Assembly: GCF_000146505.1 (NCBI RefSeq)
Contig: NC_017448.1
Coordinates: 2,340,001-2,372,000, forward strand
DNA: 32,000 nt
Reading direction: 5' to 3'
DNA from: Fibrobacter succinogenes subsp. succinogenes S85
GTDB taxonomy: Bacteria > Fibrobacterota > Fibrobacteria > Fibrobacterales > Fibrobacteraceae
Both the position numbers and the translations under genes were made by a program. Below are positions 6,680 through 7,036 of this stretch, in pieces. The notes beneath the pieces are model-generated. The model was given only the letters and a program-made list of their open reading frames with translations, made no database searches and was not told the DNA's origin. Position 1 is the first letter of the stretch. Each line of letters starts with the position of its first letter.

Positions 6680-6762
6680 TTTTATGTGGTTGACGTTCTT
6701 CTATATCAAAGTGATATAATGGTTGTCGGGCGCATGGGGCGTTCGGAAAAAAGAGGTAAAAT

Positions 6763-6858
6763 ATGAAAACTACTCAGCAAAGCATTTGGACTATTCCGTG
6801 GGGCGACATCCCGACTCCCCCGAAAATTTCATTTTTTGAGTCAACGCTTTCATTCTAA
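6763..6858 (+). CDS. smORF1 copy (MKTTQQSIWTIPWGDIPTPPKISFFESTLSF)
   Basis: TTGACG at 6690-6695 and TG-extended TATAAT at 6715-6720. Same frame and length as the other copies. Confidence 0.5.
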   Translation: MKTTQQSIWTIPWGDIPTPPKISFFESTLSF

Positions 6859-6917
6859 AGCGATAAAAACAGAAGGGTGCAATGTTGCACTGTCAAACCT
6901 TAACGGAGGATACCTCA

Positions 6918-6974
6918 ATGAGACCGATTGTCACATCTGTCGATGAAACCGAAATCCTTGCAAAACACTGCTAA
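6918..6974 (+). CDS. smORF2 copy, 18 aa (MRPIVTSVDETEILAKHC)
   Basis: In-frame loss of one GAAATC unit relative to the other copies. Confidence 0.4.
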   Translation: MRPIVTSVDETEILAKHC

Positions 6975-7006
6975 TCAACGAATGATATTTCAAACTAAAG
7001 CGTTAA

Positions 7007-7036
7007 ACCCCGGTGTCAAAAACCGGGCTTTTTTTG
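7007..7036 (+). terminator. terminator of the smORF module
   Basis: CCCGGT..ACCGGG stem followed by T7. Confidence 0.65.

Follow-up and report, generated by a model that had tools for sequence, protein, structure and literature searches.

What do the short units that recur between the CRISPR arrays of Fibrobacter succinogenes S85 encode, and what part do they play there? Within a 32,000-nt stretch of the S85 chromosome (NC_017448.1, positions 2,340,001 to 2,372,000; hereafter the window, in whose coordinates all S85 features are given), six units of roughly 350 nt lie between the arrays. Each carries a promoter, two small open reading frames (smORF1 and smORF2), both preceded by a Shine–Dalgarno (SD) sequence, and a terminator. 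A first-pass annotation made from the letters alone had proposed that these are two conserved peptide genes in one self-contained transcription unit. Comparison across genomes supports the peptides: smORF1 very probably, and smORF2 probably, is peptide-coding. The same comparison divides the unit into two cassettes of separate origin and places the most divergent relatives of both peptides on jumbo-phage contigs.

Anatomy and origin of the S85 unit

Alignment bears out the six copies that the annotation had listed, all on the plus strand and with a mean column identity of 94%: copy 1 at 2852–3204 (smORF1 2925–3020, smORF2 3080–3142), copy 2 at 6690–7036, copy 3 at 8203–8557 (8277–8372 and 8434–8496), copy 4 at 9914–10269 (9987–10082 and 10146–10208), copy 5 at 11407–11760 (11481–11576 and 11636–11698) and copy 6 at 12530–12889 (12603–12698 and 12762–12824). 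Copy 2, the focal copy, is read from alignment and nhmmer as a smORF1 cassette fused to a smORF2 cassette. Its promoter-like site (6690–6720, plus strand) consists of TTGACG at 6690–6695, a 19-nt spacer with TG at 6712–6713, and TATAAT at 6715–6720, which can equally be written as N17-GATATA. The promoter described by the annotation is present in every copy, with TTGACG as the −35 element in five and TTGATG in copy 5. The same geometry (TTGACA-N17-GATATA, or N19-TATAxx) recurs in every cassette of the S85 locus and in the related loci L012, L007 and L008; a consensus promoter scan allowing 16–18 nt missed the unit promoter because its spacing of 19 nt is unusual. At the predicted transcript start lies an inverted repeat, GGGCGC-ATGGG-GCGTTC (6728–6744, plus strand), which is invariant in 6/6 copies, reads GAACGC-ATGGT-GCGTTC in L008 (a G-U pair becoming A-U) and is replaced by CCGGG...CCCGG in a divergent L007 paralogue, L007b. 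This repeat could be an operator.

smORF1 of copy 2 (6763–6858, plus strand), preceded by GAGG, encodes 31 aa, MKTTQQSIWTIPWGDIPTPPKISFFESTLSF, of which residues 1–23 are the conserved part; its length is the same in 6/6 copies. The cassette junction follows at 6832–6870 (plus strand), where the smORF1 tail overlies a remnant of the smORF2-cassette promoter (compare GGTTGACACTTCCGTTCTAAAAAGCAATAAAAAG in L008), and then a small hairpin, GTGCAATGTTGCAC (6877–6890, plus strand), which contains an in-frame upstream ATG. smORF2 (6918–6974, with SD GGAGGA at 6905–6910; together 6905–6974, plus strand) encodes 18 aa in the focal copy, MRPIVTSVDETEILAKHC, and 20 aa in the others, one EI repeat having been lost from the former by deletion of 6 nt in frame. 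Stop codons of the unit ORFs swap between TAA and TGA among copies and, as the annotation had noted for smORF2, the frame is kept across both changes. The S85 peptide stretches are QQSIWTIPWGDIPTPPK for smORF1 and (M)RPIVASVDETEIEILAK for smORF2. An intrinsic terminator, CCCGGTGTCAAAAACCGGG (7009–7027), with its T run closes the unit (7009–7036 in all, plus strand). smORF1 of copies 4 and 6 ends in a TGA (10082 and 12698) that is in frame with an N-extended smORF2, and a public protein set holds a 73-aa 'fusion' call that reads this TGA as W (P0195); the call is probably a gene-calling artefact rather than read-through.

We retrieved related Fibrobacter loci through Csx1 and Cas1 homologues and searched them with an nhmmer profile of the six S85 copies. 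Matches in relatives fall in two separate pieces, breaking at alignment columns ~175–182, which correspond to smORF1 codons 23–25. Piece 1, comprising the promoter, the 5′ hairpin and smORF1 to about column 175, immediately precedes csx1, with which the type III-D effector operon begins, in three lineages: at 452–526 in L012 (MKHDQQSIWTLPWGDIPTPPNVSC), 10001–10075 in L007 and 9853–9933 in L008 (MKTVQQSIWTLLWGDIPTPPSKKIVF). In each, smORF1 and csx1 are co-oriented and separated by 67–86 nt without a terminator. Piece 2 begins near column 182, reaches as far as the terminator and is found by itself behind an array end, under a TTGACA-N17-AATAAA promoter of its own (L007 3983–4045; L008 7320–7382), and S85 copies 4 and 6 still retain TTGACG-N17-GATAAA within the smORF1 tail. 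The two-ORF unit is therefore a fusion, made in the S85 lineage, of two cassettes that are independent of each other and both equipped with a promoter and an SD, and the fused bicistronic cassette has been amplified along with the module of small RNA (sRNA), leader and array in that lineage. This also accounts for the variable last 8 codons of smORF1, which are translated remnants of the −35 and −10 elements of the old smORF2 promoter and lie outside the conserved peptide. The proposal of a self-contained two-ORF unit thus holds for S85, whereas in relatives the cassettes are separate; likewise, the peptides lie between CRISPR arrays in the window, but smORF1 of relatives sits upstream of csx1 and the phage copies have no CRISPR nearby. 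Neither ORF is present in three type III-B lineages that share the repeat, leader, sRNA and long units with S85, so that within this sample both are restricted, among CRISPR loci, to type III-D. A scan of genome contigs with the concatenated peptides gave only L007 among the matches listed.

Coding evidence and jumbo-phage homologues

The first-pass annotation had pointed to smORF1 codons 5–23, where all three differences among the S85 copies (ATT/ATC, CCG/CCA and GAC/GAT) are synonymous. The alignment agrees; the chance of all three being synonymous is ~0.02, a rough estimate that assumes about a quarter of sites to be synonymous, and gene conversion may have played a part. With paralogues that are 94% identical, three substitutions by themselves carry little weight, as the annotation's own caveat about too-recent copies had anticipated; what is decisive comes from other genomes. 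SD, ATG, frame and stop are intact in 11/11 fused copies (the window, L016, L017, L021 and L023) and in every separate cassette, with no frameshift or internal stop. Over the 13-codon core of smORF1, S85 and L008 differ with a proportion of synonymous changes (pS) of 0.41 and of non-synonymous changes (pN) of 0.07. A divergent paralogue found by promoter DNA similarity, L007b (L007 7701–7778, MKNVHQSIGVLPWGNLPDPPIGKRG), retains the length and the motif LPWGxΦPxPP while Ser changes from AGC to TCT. The family comprises two subtypes, ..IW(T/A)(L/I)PWGDIPTPP.. and ..LPWG(N/S)LPDPPIGKRG-stop; conservation lies near the C-terminus, the N-terminus is variable, and the distance from PP to the stop ranges from 2 to 11 codons.

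smORF2 has the core ..DETEIEILA(K/R/N)HC-stop and changes only conservatively or synonymously among host lineages (pS 0.24, pN 0.07–0.09), always with a strong terminator downstream. A 32-aa form starting at the upstream in-frame ATG was rejected: a stop follows that ATG in L021, so the short form is the conserved one. The item that we regard as decisive for smORF2 coding is a stand-alone, SD-preceded gene, MFKEYIFEFLSKYDETEIEILARHC, at 280–357 (minus strand) of L050, on a 268-kb IMG/VR viral contig with a GC fraction of 0.30. It agrees with L008 in the final 12 residues and the stop, although 6/12 codons differ, all synonymously (CTT/TTA, AGA/CGT, TGC/TGT and others), and its final xHC-stop falls outside the pattern used in the search.

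smORF1 homologues also occur on viral contigs. A codon-degenerate metagenome scan for WGDIPTPP returned 28 matches, against ~22 expected by chance under an assumed collection size; most are chance matches, and several fall in DEAD-box helicase motifs or on the antisense strand of GC-rich genes. Two SD-preceded ORFs of the smORF1 family stand on related contigs without CRISPR, at L025 902–1009 (MQNKDIAQRVLKKYKRPEMTIWTLPWGDIPTPPSR) and L034 7459–7575 (MKNQFNPTENKLMKKYTKPVMRIWALPWGDIPTPPSSN), and both also keep IW(T/A)LP, residues outside the searched pattern. They differ from each other with pS 0.83 and pN 0.03, a terminator follows each, and their cores differ from the CRISPR-linked copies with pS 0.62–0.92 and pN 0.03–0.09. 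Proteins of L034 match phrog_12252 (twice) and DUF5662; in tblastn searches their only matches are jumbo phages (AR9, PBS1 and BpSp among them), and their relatives, 53–78% identical, lie on IMG/VR contigs of 179–259 kb and one 56-kb contig. These contigs share a gene order of a divergent DUF5662 gene, a small-gene slot and two phrog_12252 genes.

In L058 (2664–2753, MKKMARLIDNSFGRLPWGSLPDPPIGKRG) and L059 (2646–2750, MKKETMLERLQRTRIFCPPISLPNPPIGKRGLEF) the slot holds further smORF1-family genes, and since these contigs were retrieved through the neighbouring gene, their selection was not biased by the peptide. Over the last 15 codons, L058 differs from the host paralogue L007b by 10 synonymous changes, CGT/AGA among them, and 1 non-synonymous change (pS 0.94, pN 0.06), and both end in the same TAG stop; Ser is encoded by AGC in one and by TCT in the other. 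Because L058 and L059 match this paralogue, CRISPR loci and this one phage slot each contain both smORF1 subtypes. Both contigs show translational coupling between the peptide gene and a gene for 56 aa, with overlapping stop and start and an SD inside the last codons. The smORF1-family phage genes occupy one slot directly beside DUF5662; on the more distant contig, a DUF5662-family gene is found two genes away from the smORF2-like gene. Flanks of phage and CRISPR peptide genes no longer align, and the motifs persist despite saturated synonymous sites, a pattern that indicates selection on both peptides and not on the DNA. The annotation's view that both ORFs are conserved peptide genes is in this way strengthened by synonymous-biased substitution across genomes.

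The phage slot is itself variable, L056 and L057 holding a different 33-aa ORF, MKLDYKSLCPVYTFGPIFKIPIGSSQFPKIPKK. DUF5662 genes (L034 7702–8469, L056–L060, L050 1033–1350) encode invariant HHDxDK and HRxxNxHH motifs, which suggest an HD-type phosphohydrolase; a viral scan with the DUF5662 alignment recovered the same five contigs only. Cultured-phage genomes gave no tblastn match to the peptides. An L007 spacer and the L034 peptide gene share a stretch of 14 identical nt, which was dismissed as chance because it is sense-oriented and does not extend.

In keeping with the annotation's statement that it could assign no family, neither peptide matched Pfam (E ≤ 10) or PADLOC (E ≤ 1), smORF1 found only spurious eukaryotic repeat proteins among 1.84 billion representative proteins, and the concatenated query found only miscalled fusion ORFs from the same loci in a 5.8-billion-protein set. 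Literature searches returned no description of these peptides or of DUF5662. The peptides are 18–38 aa long and have no hydrophobic stretch (grand average of hydropathy, GRAVY, 0.09 and 0.25 in S85 and −0.9 to 0.25 in the broader set), which confirms that they do not resemble membrane toxins, and the CRISPR-linked smORF1 peptides are near-neutral or acidic (isoelectric point 5.2–5.8). No peptide mimicry of Cas protein segments was found, and no maturase genes of the kind that serve ribosomally synthesized, post-translationally modified peptides lie beside any cassette, the neighbours being arrays, sRNA cassettes, cas1 and the type III-D operon.

Candidate roles of the peptides

What might such peptides do? 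We tentatively favour, with a confidence that stops a little short of even, the reading that they are trans-acting micropeptides in a conflict between type III-D CRISPR and jumbo phages. The host peptides would act as free peptides rather than as cis-regulatory leaders, would most likely tune or restrain the III-D response, for example at the Csx1 ribonuclease, and the phage copies would exploit the same target; the direction of action may be that of a brake, an effector or a mimic. Action in trans is suggested because what lies downstream in one lineage bears no relation to what lies there in another (smORF2, csx1, a terminator, a 155-aa gene or the coupled 56-aa gene), many copies are terminated, and the two families, although unrelated, travel together in the CRISPR locus and the phage region. 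A role in conflict is favoured because type III is reportedly the CRISPR type that acts on jumbo phages. A more specific version, in which host peptides of 18–31 aa form a new layer of type III-D systems that acts on an effector such as the Csx1 ribonuclease or on the ribosome, and jumbo phages carry diverged, subverting mimics beside an HD-motif DUF5662 gene, is conceivable from the sequences but rather doubtful. The phage homologues share with anti-CRISPRs a tiny size and a place in a variable slot, here in jumbo-phage genomes; unlike anti-CRISPRs, the window copies are encoded by a host chromosomal CRISPR locus, no aca-like regulator is adjacent, and inhibition is only putative. At 18–38 aa they would, to our knowledge, be smaller than known anti-CRISPRs.

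Several observations weigh against a conflict role in trans. It is paradoxical that a host should encode homologues of a presumed phage counter-defence factor, and Fibrobacter spacers compared with the 13 phage loci gave no match linking the phage contigs to a Fibrobacter host. L025, L034 and L050 were found with peptide-derived patterns, so that conservation within the pattern is by construction, although the residues flanking it and the L058 and L059 genes are free of this bias. Among host lineages, smORF2 is conserved no better than its own 5′ flank. This last point, together with the ~94% conservation of the whole S85 unit including its untranslated parts, is what could be expected if the ORFs were incidental and the unit served as a non-coding RNA or a promoter–terminator insulator. 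We consider that very improbable: the peptide motifs outlast DNA that is saturated at synonymous sites and flanks that cannot be aligned, start, SD, frame and stop are kept in all copies, folding of the unit reveals no excess structure (z-score 0.11), and an Rfam scan of the whole window gave sub-threshold noise and nothing in the units.

Finally among the points against trans action, a smORF1 that lies upstream of csx1 without a terminator and bears a W/P-rich PxPP motif fits a leader acting in cis equally well. On that account smORF1, and perhaps smORF2, would be a leader peptide whose EF-P-dependent stalling at PxPP sets expression of csx1 in relatives, of smORF2 with read-through into the CRISPR leader in S85, and of the coupled gene in phages, the likeness of host and phage peptides being kept by the same ribosome tunnel. 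SecM, MifM, TnaC and polyproline stalling relieved by EF-P show the same conservation near the C-terminus and variable N-terminus, with a W/P motif in a short ORF upstream of an operon, and motif conservation at the amino-acid level, as expected of arrest peptides, is seen in the smORF1 core (pS 0.6–0.9, pN 0.03–0.09). The csx1-proximal arrangement in three lineages and the coupling to the 56-aa gene in L058 and L059 also speak for it. Known arrest leaders, however, have a fixed downstream gene or a responsive RNA structure, and the smORFs have neither: the partners are unrelated between lineages, many copies are monocistronic with a terminator (L007b, L025/L034 and all smORF2 copies), and no conserved alternative RNA structure ties the ORF to the downstream SD or terminator. 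Folding of the smORF1–csx1 leaders of the three relatives recovered only the 5′ hairpin, and pairing between the ORF and the csx1 ribosome-binding site was conserved in none of them. Moreover, csx1 keeps its own conserved promoter-like motif, AAATAAGAGTATATT, upstream of its start and after smORF1, even in loci without smORF1, and the varying distance from PP to the stop also counts against a leader. We judge control in cis unlikely, but regard it as the main rival.

Toxicity offers a further possibility, and one that we rate as distinctly unlikely: the peptides would be addiction or abortive-infection toxins that stabilise the arrays, either as a type III analogue of CreT/CreP or as a toxin–antitoxin pair with the ~85-nt sRNA as antidote. 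In S85 and its relatives one cassette follows each array and adjoins an sRNA cassette with a strong terminator; the promoters and SDs are strong as well, and the Pro-rich smORF1 peptide could target the ribosome. Apidaecin and oncocin, which are cationic, secreted, eukaryotic, ribosome-targeting peptides, are likewise short, non-hydrophobic and Pro-rich with PxPP-type motifs; the likeness is one of composition alone, and the charge of the CRISPR-linked smORF1 peptides differs from theirs. CreT/CreP of type I and V-A loci (CreTA/CrePA) are also very small genes with a strong promoter and SD, set in a CRISPR–cas locus beside repeat-derived elements. Here, by contrast, no CRISPR-RNA-like antitoxin is complementary to the unit (in blastn-short searches, none of all 36 spacers matched any unit over at least 14 nt), the system is of the RNA-targeting type III-D, whose complexes, unlike Cascade, do not repress promoters, it is the peptide sequence and not the use of rare codons that is conserved, and phage homologues exist. 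Neither a hydrophobic toxin nor a base-pairing RNA antitoxin, the two marks of a type I toxin–antitoxin system, was found: the predicted duplex of the sRNA with the unit mRNA, at −42.5 kcal/mol, is no better than that of shuffled controls (−43.2 ± 4.4 kcal/mol). Tight control would be required if six toxin copies were constitutive, and no element exerting it was detected. There is precedent for toxin genes embedded in CRISPR loci (reviewed in PMC12737573).

The trans-acting reading keeps our tentative preference over these alternatives, and the peptides partly resemble CreT/CreP, leader peptides and phage anti-defence genes but do not clearly fit any of these groups.

Neighbouring elements and implications

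The arrays themselves are short, lie on the plus strand at about 1300–14400 of the window and are built from a 37-nt repeat, CCCTGAAAAGCATT[A/C]CTCTCGCAAGAGAGATTAAGAC, a hairpin followed by an 8-nt handle of type III-like form. They form a repeated module of a ~300-nt leader, repeats with spacers, at least one long unit, a repeat hairpin terminator, a promoter with its ~85-nt sRNA and the smORF unit. cas1 is encoded at 4527–5558, and the type III-D effector operon, with Cas10d, Csx10-type Cas5 and Cas7 fusions, at 15373–24284 (plus strand), starting with the gene for a Csx1-like CARF–HEPN protein with an RNGFNH motif (15373–16671, plus strand). One protein of the operon (21625–22017) has an identical counterpart on the S85 record CP001792.1. 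Upstream of cas1 (4440–4526; L007 4228–4315; L008 3390–3475) lie the smORF1-type promoter design and a 5′ hairpin, GGGGTGCAAAGCCCC.

An sRNA cassette follows every array and is conserved in relatives: a TTGACAC-N17-GATATA promoter, a transcript of ~85 nt and a strong terminator, GGCGGTCCCGGTAAAAATCGGGGCCGTTTTTT (1590–1700, 2730–2848, 6566–6682, 8076–8192, 9790–9906, 11279–11399, 12403–12519 and 14207–14327). Its 5′ part is variable and carries CUCC-type motifs resembling an anti-SD. These shared designs suggest that cas1, smORF1 and the sRNAs use one type of regulatory cassette.

At the distal end of every array are long units, in which the repeat is split between ...GAGAGAT and TAAGAC by an insert of ~78 nt (GGCAACCTGGCGGTTGCC TGCTTGTCGGCTCGG...CGCTCGCCTCTGTCGCAG). 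They lie at 2349–2490, 2528–2669, 3701–3842, 6340–6481, 7382–7523, 7561–7702, 7739–7880, 9274–9415, 9455–9596, 10916–11057, 11094–11235, 12180–12321, 13311–13452 and 13562–13703, with variants at 3913–4059, 4097–4317 and 13888–14090. RNAalifold on 26 copies from six Fibrobacter lineages of types III-D and III-B predicts 21 pairs, 9 of which show compensatory changes (for example AU13/UA11/CG2 and CG13/AU11/UA2), and the long units have no Rfam match. Their covariation suggests a structured RNA, as yet undescribed, that is carried within type III repeats and could be even more notable than the smORFs themselves.

Between the last array and csx1 lies a 142-aa ORF (14402–14830), followed by an intervening minus-strand ORF (14847–15191). 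The ribosome-binding site and start of the 142-aa ORF, AACGAGGAGGATCGCTCAATGAG, resemble those of smORF2, AACGGAGGATACCTCAATGAG, and it has no Pfam or PADLOC match; in L013 this gene is in the same position and smORF1 is absent. In a type III-B Fibrobacter locus, L054, three SD-preceded tiny ORFs, MDLFEKIESIADILADCFK, MIKRKRLDVFLRLCV and MIIDFDEVFADEF, lie between an array and a CARF gene (13530–13760); the first is acidic and helical with a Cys near its C-terminus, loosely like smORF2. The first spacer of the first array (2017–2052) is complementary at 15/16 positions to the csx1 mRNA (15674–15689), a match at chance level (E 0.47) to a site that is conserved in all relatives. The adjacent spacers 10803–10840 and 10878–10915 are identical at 36/38 nt, which points to a local duplication of repeat and spacer.

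Two ORFs of under 40 codons, of a kind that annotation as arrays plus cas genes ignores, thus turn out in all likelihood to encode conserved peptides, and a repeat unit found in a single genome can be a lineage-specific fusion. The peptides are shared between jumbo phages, the class that type III systems reportedly counter, and the type III-D loci of a major cellulolytic bacterium of the rumen. If they do modulate immunity, they would be regulators or inhibitors of type III CRISPR of a new class, very small and easy to synthesise, and host and phage would be trading the same peptide. If the phage copies are subverting mimics, they would be the smallest anti-CRISPR-like factors and the first common to a CRISPR locus and its phages; we know of none smaller and of none so shared. 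If instead they are leader peptides, they would be the first case of a type III effector operon under arrest-type control, none being known to us, although no dedicated literature search was made for such control.

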